Source: a virus
Strand: one strand, 5' to 3'
Length of the DNA stretch: 64,000 nt
Virus record (IMG/VR): IMGVR_UViG_3300037760_000114
Coordinates: 1-64,000 of that record
Shown piece by piece: positions 6,733-41,265 of this stretch; position 1 is the first letter of the stretch; the number at the start of each line of letters is the position of its first letter. The position numbers and the translations under genes are program-made. Under the pieces are notes generated by a model. It had not been told where the DNA came from. It made no database searches and was given only the letters and a program-made list of their open reading frames with translations.

Positions 6733-6775
6733 TGCAACCCATGACTTGACAACGCAAGCCATGGGTTGCATAATA
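6733..6775 (+). promoter_or_regulatory. Housekeeping-sigma promoter embedded in an inverted-repeat operator; probably leaderless
   Basis: TTGACA (6746-6751), 17 bp, CATAAT (6769-6774), ATG at 6781; 11-bp perfect IR TGCAACCCATG/CATGGGTTGCA (6733-6743/6760-6770). Confidence 0.85.
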
Positions 6776-6780
6776 GAGGC

Positions 6781-7224
6781 ATGACACAGACCATCACCCG
6801 GGTCGGCAGCGCCAGCGTCGCGGCAGCGATCGCCGAGTACCACCACGGCACGGCTGACTGGCTGCCGGGCGGCGTCGACCACCTCGCCACCGGCTCGCAG
6901 CGGACCGTCTACGTCGACTACGACGCCGAGATCGTCTACAAGCTGGGCATCGACGGCGCCAACCGGCAAGAGGTCTCGACCCTCTCGGCGCTACGCGCAA
7001 GCGGTGTCGGTCACGCACCGGCCGCCGACCTGCACGAAGTGACCGTCGCAGACCTGGACGGCGACACCATCACCGCCACGGTGGTTGCGATGCCGTACCT
7101 GCCTGACGACGGCAGCGTCACTGGCCCGTACCCGATCCTGGACGGTGCCGCTGACCTCAACCCGGCCGGCAACGTGGTCGCTAACGGTGGCCAGCTGTGG
7201 CTGATCGACGCGGGTGGCCTGTGA
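6781..7224 (+). CDS. Minimal protein-kinase-like fold protein (147 aa)
   Basis: G-loop-like LATGSQRTVY, IVYK lysine, helix-C-like E (NRQE), catalytic-loop-like DLNPAGNV, DFG-like LWLIDAG. Confidence 0.65.
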   Translation: MTQTITRVGSASVAAAIAEYHHGTADWLPGGVDHLATGSQRTVYVDYDAEIVYKLGIDGANRQEVSTLSALRASGVGHAPAADLHEVTVADLDGDTITATVVAMPYLPDDGSVTGPYPILDGAADLNPAGNVVANGGQLWLIDAGGL

Positions 7225-8087
7225 GCACGCCCCCGCATCTCGACCCGGCAGTACGCCACGACGTGGTGATCATGTTCGACGCCACCGACTGCAACCCCAA
7301 CGGCGACCCGGACCAGAACAACCAGCCCCGCACCGATGACGAGTCCGGCCACGGGCTGGTCACCGATGTGGCGATCAAGCGGAAGGTCCGCGACACGGTG
7401 GCGCTGCTGCACGGCGACGACCGCCGGTACGGCATCTTCGTGGAGGCCGGGCACGCGCTGAACACCCGTTGGGCCGACGCTCGCGAGAACACCCCCGGTG
7501 CCGCCGACCCGCTGGCCACGCTGTGTGGCATGTACTGGGACGTGCGGATGTTCGGGCAGGTCCTGACCGGCGGCAAGGGTGGACAGTCCTCCTCGGTCCG
7601 GGGTCCGGTACAGCTCACCTTCGGCCGCAGCATCGACCCAGTGCTGCCCACCGACCACACCATCACCCGGGTCACCCAGACCCGGCAGGAAGACATCGAC
7701 AAGGGCGAGAGCACCGAGATCGGCTCGAAGTGGACCGTGCCGTACGGGCTGTACCGCACCCACCTGTACTACTCGCCGGGGCGTGCCGCCAAGACCGGGA
7801 TCACCAGCGACGACCTCGACACGCTGTGGCGGGCGATCGCGGCCATGTTCGAGCACGACCGGTCCAGCAACCGTGGCGGAATGGACATCGCCGGACTGTG
7901 GGTGTTCAGCCACCCGGACGCGCTCGGCGTGGCGCCGTCACGGGCGGTCCTGCGCCGCATCCAGGTCACGGCCGCCGATCCGGGCCGGGCGCCACGCGGC
8001 TACGCCGACTACCGCCGGCAGATCGACCGCGCCGGCATGCCCGCCGGCATCGAGCTGGCCACCATCGTCGACATCTGGGAGGACTGA
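7221..8087 (+). CDS. cas7: Solitary type I-C CRISPR backbone protein Cas7/Csd2 (288 aa)
   Basis: NPNGDP...NQPR...GLVTDVAIKRKVRD, WDVRMFGQV, VRGPVQLTF..SIDP, ITR, KWTVPYGLY, AAKTGIT..DL, MFEHDRS, H...LG: end-to-end Csd2 signature. Confidence 0.95.
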   Translation: MSTPPHLDPAVRHDVVIMFDATDCNPNGDPDQNNQPRTDDESGHGLVTDVAIKRKVRDTVALLHGDDRRYGIFVEAGHALNTRWADARENTPGAADPLATLCGMYWDVRMFGQVLTGGKGGQSSSVRGPVQLTFGRSIDPVLPTDHTITRVTQTRQEDIDKGESTEIGSKWTVPYGLYRTHLYYSPGRAAKTGITSDDLDTLWRAIAAMFEHDRSSNRGGMDIAGLWVFSHPDALGVAPSRAVLRRIQVTAADPGRAPRGYADYRRQIDRAGMPAGIELATIVDIWED

Positions 8088-8092
8088 GAACC

Positions 8093-8371
8093 GTGAGCAC
8101 CATCGGATACGAGATCGAGCGGCACGAGGTGGAGGCGCTGCGGGACAACCTGCTGGGCGATCTACTCGCCGAGCAGGATGACCTGATCGCCTACCAGCGG
8201 CTGACCCGGGAGCAGGCGCTGTGCGACGCGCTCGTGTCGGAGATCAAACGGCTACGCGGCGAGCGGCTGCGGCGGCTGGCTGAGGGGCGGACCGCCGAGC
8301 AGGTGGCCGACCTGACGGGGCTGGGGACGCGGCAGCGGGTGCAGCAACTGATGGCCGTCGGGCTATCCTGA
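8093..8371 (+). CDS. Small HTH protein (Aca-like regulator candidate)
   Basis: GGAGG RBS; C-terminal GRTAEQVADLTGLGTRQRVQQLM helix-turn-helix. Confidence 0.75.
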   Translation: MSTIGYEIERHEVEALRDNLLGDLLAEQDDLIAYQRLTREQALCDALVSEIKRLRGERLRRLAEGRTAEQVADLTGLGTRQRVQQLMAVGLS

Positions 8372-12215: not shown

Positions 12216-12695
12216 GTGAGCAACACCCCGATGAGCAAGAAGCAGGAAGCCCTGATCCTGAGCCTTGCCCGCCAGCTCGACGGCGGCAGCTACCGCTTCA
12301 TCTCGCAGTGCGAGCACCTGCTGCCGGTGTCCCGCAGCGCTGCTCGCGGCCTGAGCACCACCGACGCCAGCCTGTGCATCGACCACCTGCAGGCCGAGGT
12401 GGACAAGGCCGAGCTGGCAAAGCAGGCCGCCGAGCGCGGCGAGACCGCTCCCACCCCGGAGCCGACTCCGGAGCCGGAGGGCGGCCCCACCGCCGACCAA
12501 CTGCTCGCGATGCTCGGCAAGAAGATCACGGTCACCTGGGTCAACCGGGACGGCGAGACCGTGACCTGGGATGGCACCTGCCGCTGGGTGCAGGCCAGCG
12601 ACAAGGACGGCACCCCTGAGATCAACATCATGACCGCTCGGGGCATGAAGGCCATGCGGACCCACCGGCTCACCTCCTGGGTCACCCACATATGA
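12216..12695 (+). CDS. Two-domain hypothetical protein (anti-defence candidate)
   Basis: AAGGAG RBS; helical N-domain (SKKQ...LSTTDASLCIDHL), PTPEPTPEPE linker, beta-rich C-domain. Confidence 0.75.
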   Translation: MSNTPMSKKQEALILSLARQLDGGSYRFISQCEHLLPVSRSAARGLSTTDASLCIDHLQAEVDKAELAKQAAERGETAPTPEPTPEPEGGPTADQLLAMLGKKITVTWVNRDGETVTWDGTCRWVQASDKDGTPEINIMTARGMKAMRTHRLTSWVTHI

Positions 12696-12892
12696 GCGAC
12701 ACCCGCCCACGCGGGCGCCCGACCAAAGGTGACCGGGTCGAGACCCGGCTAGAGCCCGATGTCCGGGCAGCCCTCGCCGAGTGGGCTTCCGACCGACCCG
12801 ATGTGGACCGCCGCGACGGCGAGCCGGTGGAAGCGGACGCCATCCGGGTGATCGTGGCCGAGAGGCTTGACGCGGATGGCTACCTGCCGTAG
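12692..12892 (+). CDS. Small RHH-like DNA-binding protein
   Basis: ATGA overlap; RGRPTKGDRVETRLEPDVRAALAEWA...EADAIRVIVAERL. Confidence 0.65.
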   Translation: MSDTRPRGRPTKGDRVETRLEPDVRAALAEWASDRPDVDRRDGEPVEADAIRVIVAERLDADGYLP

Positions 12893-12902
12893 CGTCGGCG
12901 CC

Positions 12903-13006
12903 GTTGCGGCCGGTCCGCCGGCCGCCCTTCATTAAGGGGTGGACTGGCTGAAGGTCCGTCGCCCTGGCACCTTTGTCGCGGGCCACCGCCCGCCCTTCAC
13001 TGAGAC
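12903..13006 (+). CRISPR. CRISPR mini-array: repeat - 36-nt spacer - degenerate repeat
   Basis: R1 12903-12938 GTTGCGGCCGGTCCGCCGGCCGCCCTTCATTAAGGG (8-bp stem); spacer 12939-12974; R2 12975-13006 GTCGCGGGCCACCGCCCGCCCTTCACTGAGAC (6-bp stem); shared GTYGCGG...CCGCCCTTCAYTRAG. Confidence 0.75.
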
Positions 13007-13101
13007 GCCCCCGGCCCACAGTCGGGGGCGTTCTGCTGACCCCGGACACGACGAAGCGCCCCGCGCCCACCCCGTAACAGGGGGAAGGACGCGGGGCGCT
13101 C
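13005..13101. terminator. Two hairpins closing the mini-array transcript and the convergent late operon
   Basis: ACGCCCCCG..CGGGGGCGT (13005-13031) and AGCGCCCCGCG...CGCGGGGCGCT (~13055-13100). Confidence 0.6.
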
Positions 13102-13138
13102 GACGGGCGGTGCGGATAGCGGCGGGACACCGCCCGGC

Positions 13139-13498
13139 TTAGCGGCTGGTGATCGCCGTGTCCTTCGGCGCCACCTGATGGCGTGTGATCAAGGCGAACA
13201 CGGCCATGACGGTGGCGGAGATCGTGGCGACCGTCGCGTCCGGCGCATTCAGCCCGTACTCGACCAGCAGAGCCGCCCCTGCGGTCACCACGCCGGTGAC
13301 CATCGCCGGTGCGATCGGCCTGGTTGTGGCGACCAGGATCAGCGCGGCCACCAGAGCGGTGACAGCGGCGGCCTGCCCGGCGGACAGGAACGGGACGCCG
13401 AGCGCGGCCAGGGCCACCAGTGCGGCACCAACTGTGGCGATCCACGCGGACGGTTCGCGCCCGAGGATCTTGATCGTGCCGGTTTGAGTTGCCATCAT
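13139..13498 (-). CDS. Holin-like membrane protein
   Basis: ILGREP motif and four TM segments, end of the late operon. Confidence 0.7.
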   Translation of the reverse strand: MMATQTGTIKILGREPSAWIATVGAALVALAALGVPFLSAGQAAAVTALVAALILVATTRPIAPAMVTGVVTAGAALLVEYGLNAPDATVATISATVMAVFALITRHQVAPKDTAITSR

Positions 13499-36796: not shown

Positions 36797-37786
36797 TCAG
36801 GACTCCTCGCCGTCAGCCAGGCCGGTGATCTTCCCGTGGGTCTTCTCGTTGCCGTACTTCAGCCCGATCTCGCCGTAGATCTGCCGGGTGTCGGAAGCGC
36901 CCACCTTCGCCAGCGGCTCCTCGAACAGGAACCCCTTGCCGGGGATCTCCAGGAACACCGGTGCGCACTGCTCCAGGCTGACCACCTGAAGCGCATCGGT
37001 CGGCATGTGCCGGTTCAACATGACGTTCAGGTCACCGAAGTCGGTGCTGATGGTCATGACCCGAACCCCGGCCACGGTACGGGACTGCTCCTGGTAGTTC
37101 TTGTCCGTGATGAAAATCTTCGTCAGGGCACGCTTCTGGTGCCCGTTGACCATCACCGCGGCGGTGTCGGCCATGGAGATGCCGCCGTTTTCCCACACGG
37201 ACTGGAGCAGGTCCAGCACCATGGCTTCGGTGAGTGCCCCACCCCCAGCGGCGACCACATTGGTGACGGTCGCCTCCAGGATGCCGCGGGTGCGGCGCGG
37301 CTCACCGTTGGTGGACGGGTTGTTGTGGGTGCCGGAGATGAAGCTGCGCTCCACGTCGCGGGCGATCTGCACCAGGTGCTGCTGCAGCTGCCACGCCGTC
37401 TCATCCCCAACCGGGTTCACACCCGAGATCCCGACCGATCCCGGGTGGTTGGAGCCGGTGGAGTTGTACTGGCCGGTCGCGGCCTGCTTGGTGTAGGAGA
37501 TCTCCACGAACTCCTGGTGGATCTCCACCACGTTCGCCACGTTGAACCGGACCCGCGCCTCCTTGTCGCCGCTCTGCGCCGCATAGCCCTCGACCCGCTG
37601 CCGGGTCGCGGAGGCGTCACGCAGGTCGAAACCCTGCCACTGGAACAGCGTCGAATCGGTCCGCTCCCCGCCAGTCAGGCCACCGATCGCCGAAAGGAAC
37701 GGCGTGTCGGTCGGGGTGACTGCAAACAGAGCCCCCACAAAGTTCGGAAGGTTGAAAGTGGTTCCCTGCCCGGTAATACCCGCCAT
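36797..37786 (-). CDS. Major capsid protein (SU10/DUF5309 type)
   Basis: GQGTTFNLPNFVGALF, TPFLSAIGGL, NVVEIHQE, QIYGEIGLKYGNE..HGKI. Confidence 0.9.
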   Translation of the reverse strand: MAGITGQGTTFNLPNFVGALFAVTPTDTPFLSAIGGLTGGERTDSTLFQWQGFDLRDASATRQRVEGYAAQSGDKEARVRFNVANVVEIHQEFVEISYTKQAATGQYNSTGSNHPGSVGISGVNPVGDETAWQLQQHLVQIARDVERSFISGTHNNPSTNGEPRRTRGILEATVTNVVAAGGGALTEAMVLDLLQSVWENGGISMADTAAVMVNGHQKRALTKIFITDKNYQEQSRTVAGVRVMTISTDFGDLNVMLNRHMPTDALQVVSLEQCAPVFLEIPGKGFLFEEPLAKVGASDTRQIYGEIGLKYGNEKTHGKITGLADGEES

Positions 37787-39795: not shown

Positions 39796-41265
39796 CTACC
39801 CGACCGGGACAGGCACAGGCTCGGGCTCCTCCGCCAGTGCGCCGACATCCGCTAGGTCCGGCGCCCGGCCGCCCGCAGCAAGTTTGCGGGCGATCTCAGC
39901 CAACGGATCGTCCAGCGCCGACTGCTGATCCTCGGCCTCCATCCGGCCGATCTGCACATCGGTGTAGCCCAGATCCTCCCGGGCCTGACGCAAGGTGATG
40001 ATCGGACGCGGCGTGGTGGAGAACAGCTTCACGGTGGCGTCGGCCTTCTGCGCCACCGTCGGGGTGGAGGCGTCGCGCCAGCTGACCTCCAGCCGCTTCA
40101 GCCGCACGTCCCACTCGCCGGTCTGGAAGCGGCGCACCAGCCGCATCGTGCGTTCCCACGATCCGCCGAAGTTGCGCTGCTTGCGTTCGGCCCGCTTCAC
40201 CAGTCTGGATTCGGCCGACCGGATCGCGTCCGCGCTGGCCGGGTTGTCGGTGGTGAAGCCCAGATAGTGCGGCGGCAAGCCGGCGACCGCGGCGGTCACC
40301 CGCGCCAAGGTGTTGATCGACTCGTGGAAGTTGCTCAACGACGCGGCCGGGAACTGGAACTCCTTGCCGTCCTTGTTCTTTAGTGTGAACAGCCGGCCCA
40401 TGATGGCCTGCAACGCGGTGAGCTTGTTACCCATCTCGTCTTCGAGATCACCCGGTCCGATACCGAAGAAGCCGCGCAGCGGCAGAGCCTGAAACTCGGC
40501 CCCCAGCATCATGTCCGTGGCGAGCTTGTTCGCCGCATCCGACAGGGGGATGATCGGCGCCAGCTCGCTGGTGCCGTACCGCGGCTGCGTCACCCCGTGG
40601 GCGACACGCTGACCCGCGCGCAGCCGGGGCCGATTCAGCAGCGGTACTACCGGCACCTCGCCGAGGCCATGCTCATCTCGGTCGACCTCTTTCCAGCCGC
40701 CCTGCCACTCGTAGTAGCTGGTGCGGTCGGGCAGGTACAGGGTGGCGTACCGGTGCGTCATGGTCGTGAACGACTCGACCTCGGCGACCCGCCGCAGCGC
40801 CGCCCGCACCCGCCGGGTCCGCGGGTCGATCTCGGCGAAAATCTCCAGCGGAGACTCCACGGTCACCCGCGGCGTGGCAGCGTCGTCCTCGTTGGTACCG
40901 ACACAGACCGCAGCCCGACCCATCGTCAGCGTGTCGACATGCCCCTGCTCGCTCTGCTCGTCGAGGTCGTTGTCCTGCCACACCCGCCACAGGTCCTTGT
41001 CGCCCTCGACCTCATCCGGCAGCCGGAAACCCTCCACGTCGAGGCGTTCCTCCACCGTGTCGACCACCAGCTGCGGCCAGCCGATGATCACCGGTGCGAT
41101 GCGGTCGCCCACCTCCCGCAGAATCTCGGGATGCATGTACGTGAGCGGCTGCTGACCCTCGTAGTACCGGTCATAGGCTTCCAGCCGGGGAATCTCGGCG
41201 TCGTGCATGCGGGCCAGCCGGTTCACCCAGCCGGCGTCGGTGTCAGGAAGCGTCGGCACAGCCAC
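39796..41265 (-). CDS. Portal protein (SPP1 gp6-like)
   Basis: YYEGQQPL, VEERLDVEGF, HGLGEVPVV, NPASADAI. Confidence 0.92.
   Translation of the reverse strand: MAVPTLPDTDAGWVNRLARMHDAEIPRLEAYDRYYEGQQPLTYMHPEILREVGDRIAPVIIGWPQLVVDTVEERLDVEGFRLPDEVEGDKDLWRVWQDNDLDEQSEQGHVDTLTMGRAAVCVGTNEDDAATPRVTVESPLEIFAEIDPRTRRVRAALRRVAEVESFTTMTHRYATLYLPDRTSYYEWQGGWKEVDRDEHGLGEVPVVPLLNRPRLRAGQRVAHGVTQPRYGTSELAPIIPLSDAANKLATDMMLGAEFQALPLRGFFGIGPGDLEDEMGNKLTALQAIMGRLFTLKNKDGKEFQFPAASLSNFHESINTLARVTAAVAGLPPHYLGFTTDNPASADAIRSAESRLVKRAERKQRNFGGSWERTMRLVRRFQTGEWDVRLKRLEVSWRDASTPTVAQKADATVKLFSTTPRPIITLRQAREDLGYTDVQIGRMEAEDQQSALDDPLAEIARKLAAGGRAPDLADVGALAEEPEPVPVPVG

Follow-up and report, generated by a model that had tools for sequence, protein, structure and literature searches.

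A putative mini-CRISPR array with repeats of the type I-G family in a large actinophage genome

The genome of a large, high-GC actinophage (virus record IMGVR_UViG_3300037760_000114, 104,084 bp) carries a short repeat-spacer-repeat unit, and comparison with bacterial arrays shows, at the level of primary sequence and predicted pairing, that both of its repeats, R1 and R2, belong to the type I-G CRISPR repeat family of Micromonosporaceae. We read this unit, with a probability of roughly 0.45, as a self-contained phage type I-G mini-CRISPR array, consisting of a promoter, a degenerate repeat, a spacer, a second degenerate repeat and a terminator, that would be used in counter-defense. Its transcription, processing, loading and purpose we infer; the sequence suggests that the phage may use host CRISPR proteins for its own ends. 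The window, that is, the whole stretch of DNA that we analyzed, is the first 64 kb of the record (positions 1-64,000).

Genome setting and layout of the unit

The record, which is rated complete, has a G+C content of 70% and termini that overlap by 127 nt; it includes phage genes for terminase, portal, protease, capsid, tape measure, endolysin and holin. Genes are directed rightward up to position 12892 and leftward from ~99 kb down to the holin gene, and the unit lies in the sole convergent junction of the genome (Table 1). Because type I-C spacers match its portal and capsid genes, sequence ties the phage to Micromonosporaceae hosts: the portal-gene protospacer matches a spacer of Plantactinospora endophytica NBRC 110450 (locus L058, 15457-15491) at 34/35 positions, and the capsid-gene protospacer matches a spacer from an uncultured Actinomycetota metagenome-assembled genome (L041) at ~31/36, both with a TTC PAM. 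The P. endophytica assembly also contains a four-repeat type I-G-type array, and no Csb2 is detectable in it.

The collections searched (GenBank phages, IMG/VR and JGI metagenomes) hold no related phages. The genes flanking the unit have no nucleotide or protein match among GenBank phages, and IMG/VR yielded one distant holin relative, with a dissimilar intergenic region; searches of IMG/VR and the JGI metagenomes with double-tail and unit patterns returned only chance matches in coding sequence. Among sequencing runs holding the stretch, only the probable source, a sediment DNA run, was found, and no RNA run was listed. ARAGORN detected no tRNA genes inside the window. Outside it, at ~92.3-94.9 kb, there are stretches that resemble tRNA T-arms and match host tRNA-like sequence, and the sequence ahead of position 94874 resembles the reverse complement of a tRNA 3' end; this part of the genome probably carries phage tRNA genes.

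Table 1. Positions of the unit and of other phage features discussed in the text
Feature	Position	Strand	Details
Three-gene cassette	6766-8371	+	152-aa ORF, type I-C Cas7 (ORF 7197-8087), 95-aa ORF; no other cas genes
Upstream two-gene operon	12216-12892	+	159-aa ORF 12216-12695 and overlapping 66-aa ORF 12692-12892 (ORF list)
Promoter-like site	12867-12895	+	TTGACG (12867-12872), 17 nt, TAGCGT (12890-12895); read from sequence
Sole convergent junction	12893-13138
R1	12903-12938	+	36 nt; stem GCGGCCGG/CCGGCCGC, loop TCCG, end CCTTCATTAAGGG
Spacer	12939-12974	+	36 nt
R2	12975-13006	+	32 nt; stem GCGGGC/GCCCGC, loop CACC, end CCTTCACTGAGAC
Terminator-like hairpin closing the unit	13007-13031	+	GCCCCCGGC...GTCGGGGGC, then GTTCTGCTG
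Stretch shared with phage pMLP1	13035-13071		38 nt
Hairpins with C-rich loops	13051-13139	-	Two hairpins directly after the holin stop codon
Holin gene	13139-13498	-	Last gene of the leftward arm
Capsid-gene protospacer	~37511-37546
Portal-gene protospacer	40220-40254

R1, the 36-nt spacer, R2 and the trailing hairpin, all of which had been proposed in the original prediction, proved correct to the base. R1 has exactly the layout of the host family, namely, GTT, an 8-bp stem around a 4-nt loop and a 13-nt tail (3+8+4+8+13), and its last 8 nt, ATTAAGGG, are the predicted 5' handle of the product, whereas in R2 GTC precedes a stem of 6 bp, which encloses a 4-nt loop and is followed by a tail of 13 nt. 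The direction of the repeats is that of transcription of the rightward arm, as in host arrays relative to cas2. The closing hairpin is present in both the minimum-free-energy and the centroid folds; in the minimum-free-energy fold of the whole intergenic RNA, the 3' arm and tail of R1 pair with the start of the spacer and no R1 hairpin is formed.

The upstream operon ends 10 nt ahead of R1. Neither its 159-aa nor its 66-aa product matches a Pfam or PHROG family, and its link to the array may be one of position only. The promoter-like site overlaps the last codons and the stop codon of the 66-aa ORF and fits the actinobacterial TTGACN/TANNNT form; the pattern TTGACN-(16-18)-TANNNT occurs at 3 sites in the 104-kb genome, all on the rightward arm, and an E. 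coli-type promoter scan did not call the site. As judged from the sequence, it would act as a promoter, with a predicted start ~7 nt downstream, at the first bases of R1.

A repeat search recovered the unit as a 26-nt direct repeat, 81% identical, at an offset of 68. Pairs with at least 21/26 matches at offsets of 40-100 number 8 in the real genome versus 0.25 per dinucleotide-shuffled genome, and, since the real genome has 8 of them, the 26-nt repeat alone is modest evidence. A pattern that requires GTYGC, 6 or more stem pairs counted from position 4 and a loop of 4-5 nt has only 15 sites in 208 kb (both strands); two of these are R1 and R2, each with its tail in register, although the tail is not part of the pattern.

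Two further features lie next to the unit. The two hairpins with C-rich loops behind the holin stop codon weakly resemble the actinobacterial 6C RNA (RF01066; 25.4 bits vs a gathering score of 47, E 0.18) and are probably the leftward terminator. The neighboring 38-nt stretch, made up of TGA and the 5' half of the terminator hairpin, shares 95% identity with a segment of Micromonospora phage pMLP1 (CP058906.1, 8373-8410). In pMLP1, too, the segment immediately follows a stop codon at a convergent junction; the sequences around it showed no further homology between the two phages.

Membership in a Micromonosporaceae repeat family

We screened 301 genomes of Micromonosporaceae (the family to which Micromonospora zhanjiangensis belongs) for pairs of the motif CTTCAYTRAG at a spacing of 45-75 nt and found long regular CRISPR arrays in 16 of them, whereas a reversed control pattern detected no arrays in the same genomes. 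The host repeats are 36 nt long and comprise G(T/C)CGC, an 8-bp stem, a 4-nt loop and the tail CCCTTCATTGAGGC; array periods of 70-77 nt correspond to spacers of 34-41 nt, a range that includes the 36-nt spacer of the phage. The array of one genome (G058) is located directly downstream, on the same strand, of a type I-G operon that encodes Csb1/Cas7g (TIGR02570), Csb2 (TIGR02165), Cas3g (TIGR02621), a Cas3-extension protein, Cas4g/Cas1g (NF049935) and Cas2. Thus, the form of actinobacterial type I-G repeats given in the original prediction (~36 nt, ending CTTCATTGAGG(C/G)) holds for Micromonosporaceae, where arrays adjoin the type I-G operon. Elsewhere in the order, type I-G repeats that were located independently, via Csb2, end in related tails (CCTCATTGCAGC, CTTTCGTTGAGGC and CCTCATTGCGGC).

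A covariance model was built from 9 distinct Micromonosporaceae type I-G repeats and run over both strands of the whole 104-kb phage genome. R2 (26.7 bits, E 8e-6, two stem pairs deleted) and R1 (24.2 bits, E 4.9e-5) each match model positions 1-36, with scores whose tail share is partly circular, because R1 and R2 supplied the family search pattern, and ~20-25 bits are reached with nothing more than an exact 14-nt tail. They are the only matches to the family model in the phage, the third-best hit reaching 9.5 bits, their boundaries are those of the original prediction, and their scores are at the lower end of the range of genuine degenerate repeats, which inside host arrays score 25.6-31.7 bits. 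The type I-G-like identity proposed at the outset is thereby supported end to end for both repeats, and comparison with the arrays of the host group has revealed the similarity to a real CRISPR repeat family on which that proposal depended.

The individual parts of the repeats agree with the family form, which is 36-37 nt long and starts with G(T/C)CGC: R1 has 36 nt and starts with GTTGC, and R2 starts with GTCGC and has 32 nt because two stem pairs are missing. All 8 stem pairs form in R1 and 6 in R2 (8 bp in the family), both with a 4-nt loop. Compared with the repeat of one host genome (G193), R1 is identical at 25/36 positions, with three of the stem differences compensated, and the first 7 nt of R2 are the same. 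Each phage repeat matches 11/13 tail and 6/8 handle positions of a family that was itself found through the tail motif, and the degeneracy of the handles (ATTAAGGG and ACTGAGAC) is judged against the repeats of other species.

Across the family, the helix (positions 4-11/16-23, around a loop of 4-5 nt) shows two-sided changes in 5/8 pairs, and 95.6% of its cells pair, versus 34-51% when the partners are slid. This covariation adds weight to the earlier proposal that the hairpins are compensated, which was drawn from the two phage copies only; both hairpins of the phage indeed pair.

No match to Csb2 or Cas7g was found anywhere in the phage genome; therefore, the unit, which has no type I-G cas genes next to it, is an orphan mini-array rather than a CRISPR-Cas locus and would need host proteins, the reliance on host Cas that had been proposed being the natural reading. 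With one repeat-spacer-repeat, no type I-G cas genes and repeats that are host-like at the family level, it has the layout of a virus-borne mini-array.

The family model also brought out standalone degenerate repeats in host genomes. In G193, a degenerate repeat-spacer-repeat with CATCGAG tails lies outside the main arrays (L089, 2817-2922, minus strand), and, in G058, a single degenerate type I-G repeat is followed by a terminator (L087, 1975-2013, plus strand). These are possible regulatory crRNA-like RNAs of type I-G; no target of either unit was found within 19 kb on either side, and in a partial-match scan of host type I-G loci the spacer of the G193 unit stayed at the level of shuffled controls. 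The G193 mini-array shows that degenerate units exist in the type I-G repeat family of Micromonosporaceae. Such units escape Rfam, and the standalone host repeats surfaced only with the family-specific covariance model.

Proposed counter-defense role and its alternatives

In type I-G of Thioalkalivibrio sulfidiphilus, cleavage of the 36-nt repeat by Csb2 gives a 5' handle of 8 nt, the enzyme remains attached to the 3' hairpin, and TTN serves as the PAM (PMC9638904). We propose that the transcript of the phage unit would be cut in both repeats by host Csb2, the type I-G Cas5-Cas6 fusion; by analogy with T. sulfidiphilus, the product would have ~68 nt, with AUUAAGGG as its 8-nt handle, followed by the spacer of 36 nt and then by 24 nt from R2, the hairpin of which would form its 3' end. 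The original prediction had spoken of 3' handles, a term that we abandon: the conserved repeat ends become the 5' handle of a crRNA. The crRNA-like RNA would then be built into the host Cas7g/Cas8g effector and would occupy or reprogram it, either as a decoy akin to a Racr or as a regulatory guide akin to a Cracr.

The principal competing explanation is that the RNA is a true guide, a crRNA directing host type I-G Cascade and Cas3 at a rival mobile element, be it a phage, a prophage or a plasmid. Its full length, as expected of a real guide, puts the spacer within the host range, and a repeat-spacer-repeat with host-family repeats, its own promoter-like site and a terminator would suit this role. 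Searches for a protospacer came up empty in GenBank phages, plasmids, IMG/VR and JGI metagenomes, in 401 Micromonosporaceae genomes searched with up to 3 mismatches, and in the phage itself, none having been seen by eye within the window earlier either. Given that the phage has no relatives in the collections searched, an unsampled target is plausible. Furthermore, R1 and R2 are strongly diverged, unlike the repeats of an array made by adaptation. We consider a conventional guide unlikely, if a serious contender, and favor counter-defense because of the divergence of R1 and R2, the altered handles and the anti-CRISPR-like neighborhood.

Several observations argue for the counter-defense reading. 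At 2/8 handle positions, R1 and R2 deviate both from the host consensus and from one another; the standalone G193 mini-array displays the same kind of degeneracy; and the phage both carries a lone type I-C Cas7 and is targeted by a type I-C spacer of Plantactinospora. For other CRISPR types, viral repeat RNAs that inhibit or reprogram Cas complexes have been described (PMC10651486; bioRxiv 10.1101/2024.10.29.618823). Against counter-defense stand the full-length spacer, the 6-bp stem of R2 compared with 8 bp in the family, the missing R1 hairpin in the minimum-free-energy fold, and the combination, in the phage-targeting P. endophytica, of type I-G-type repeats with no detectable Csb2. When the spacer was compared with four type I-G loci of hosts, together 152 kb, its partial complementarity was not above that of shuffled controls, and so the Cracr-type variant is without a target.

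Alternatively, the unit could be a relic, that is, a captured piece of a host type I-G array decaying without function. The degeneracy of both repeats, the loss of two stem pairs in R2, the failure to find a target or relatives in the collections searched and the orphan type I-G array without Csb2 in the candidate host would all fit such an origin. A fresh capture, however, should have identical repeats and an old neutral piece should have lost its pairing, whereas here both hairpins pair perfectly despite their different sequences, a rare promoter-like site stands exactly before R1, and a terminator-like hairpin directly follows R2. A relic is, therefore, highly improbable. Finally, that the region is no CRISPR at all but a 3' untranslated or terminator region with a chance hairpin likeness is barely credible: its location between the end of the rightward arm and the holin gene that ends the leftward one, its five GC-rich hairpins, the lack of an Rfam CRISPR-DR match, both at gathering thresholds and with E relaxed to 10, and the empty result of the type I-C repeat model would fit this, but R1 and R2 are full-length, in-register type I-G matches and the only ones in the genome, their 5' architecture is independent of the search pattern, and no U-rich tail follows either hairpin, the terminator candidate being the separate hairpin behind R2. 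A terminator cluster at the convergent junction is largely refuted by the type I-G arrays, the operon next to them, the covariance model and the 5' architecture.

The neighborhood is of further interest for the counter-defense reading, as the mini-array is located ~5 kb from the phage Cas7c gene. This gene encodes a full-length Cas7 of the Csd2 family (PF05107, E 2e-79), the closest cellular relatives of which, in Micromonospora, Salinispora, Plantactinospora and others, are 66% identical. The cassette is also present in two cellular genomes, those of Plantactinospora sp. CA-290183 (L011) and Verrucosispora sp. TAA-831 (L019), where the 152-aa protein is 65-67% identical and, in the former, the 95-aa ORF is conserved as well; neither locus has an adjacent array or a type I-G repeat nearby. 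We regard the cassette as a candidate Cas-derived anti-CRISPR. Type I-C repeats as an identity for R1 and R2 were rejected: the arrays of the Cas7 relatives have 37-nt repeats ending GAGGATCGCAAC, the model of which finds nothing significant in the phage, R1 and R2 scoring 2.6-3.9 bits on their hairpins.

[quoted passage not shown] In such an island, the lone Cas7 cassette would poison or cap type I-C Cascade, while the RNA would turn type I-G Cascade on its own cas operon or on another defense gene and silence it. If this were true, type I-G would have its first Cracr or Racr, and RNA-based and Cas-protein-based mimicry would for the first time be combined in one actinophage.

Relation to known viral repeat units

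Virus-borne mini-CRISPR arrays and solitary repeat units were reportedly described by Faure et al. 2019 and Medvedeva et al. 2019. To our knowledge, the virus-borne repeat units known so far are of types I-B, I-C, I-E, I-F, II, III and V, and type I-G is the least studied type I subtype. The phage unit is of a known kind, that of virus-borne mini-arrays, Racrs and Cracrs, on the evidence of its sequence, and we found no earlier report of a type I-G case. In the literature, viral repeat units serve as guides against rival elements, as Racr decoys (PMC10651486) or as Cracr regulators (bioRxiv 10.1101/2024.10.29.618823), and virus-borne mini-arrays have been reviewed (PMC11656645).

Like the virus-borne mini-arrays, the phage unit is a repeat-spacer-repeat without cas genes that has repeats of the host-group family and its own promoter (here, a promoter-like site). 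Unlike them, it is of type I-G, resides in a high-GC actinophage, and has strongly diverged repeats, and no target was found for it in a related virus. With the Racrs (Camara-Wilpert et al. 2023, PMC10651486), it shares a viral repeat mimic directly after a promoter, or promoter-like site in this case, and, by analogy, it would be expected to bind Cas6-type and Cas7 subunits of the host; Racrs, however, are solitary repeats, whereas the phage unit has two repeats around a full-length spacer, and the main text of the Racr paper does not name type I-G (PMC10651486). As in the Cracrs, a spacer-like segment on a phage is enclosed by degenerate repeats, and candidate protein anti-CRISPRs may lie nearby. 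Cracrs, defined by at least 9 PAM-proximal matches to a host CreA/CreR spacer, whose target may be, for instance, a cas or toxin promoter, have been reported for types V-A, I-F, I-E, I-C and I-B, not I-G (bioRxiv 10.1101/2024.10.29.618823), and the phage spacer, in contrast, has no such match in the four host type I-G loci, which are not those of the phage's own host. In common with the type I-G systems of Micromonosporaceae and T. sulfidiphilus (PMC9638904), the unit has a hairpin-forming repeat of 36 nt, a tail that would end in an 8-nt handle resembling ATTGAGGC, and a spacer length of about 36 nt; unlike the host arrays, it has a single spacer, no leader, no cas genes, degenerate handles and, in R2, a stem of 6 bp.

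As weapons of counter-defense and of conflict between viruses, virus-borne repeat units form an emerging class, which the phage unit would extend to type I-G and to the large high-GC actinophages of the antibiotic-producing Micromonosporaceae. As a 104-nt construct with a 6-bp stem and altered handles, it could probe the repeat requirements of Csb2, and the nearby lone Cas7c, together with the type I-C targeting by hosts, would make the phage a compact system for the study of layered anti-CRISPR strategies.

BLAST searches with type I-G repeats against GenBank phages gave chance matches only, and the exact 14-nt tail in IMG/VR matched mostly by coincidence within coding sequence. In one IMG/VR record of 57% G+C (IMGVR_UViG_3300043932_000107; L171, 3490-3640), a hairpin is followed by CCCTTCATTGAGGC, then by a ~38-nt spacer and a degenerate second repeat that ends CCCTTCATTGAAAAT, with terminator-like hairpins on the flanks; the arrangement suggests a second viral unit of repeat, spacer and repeat in which the repeat is type I-G-like.
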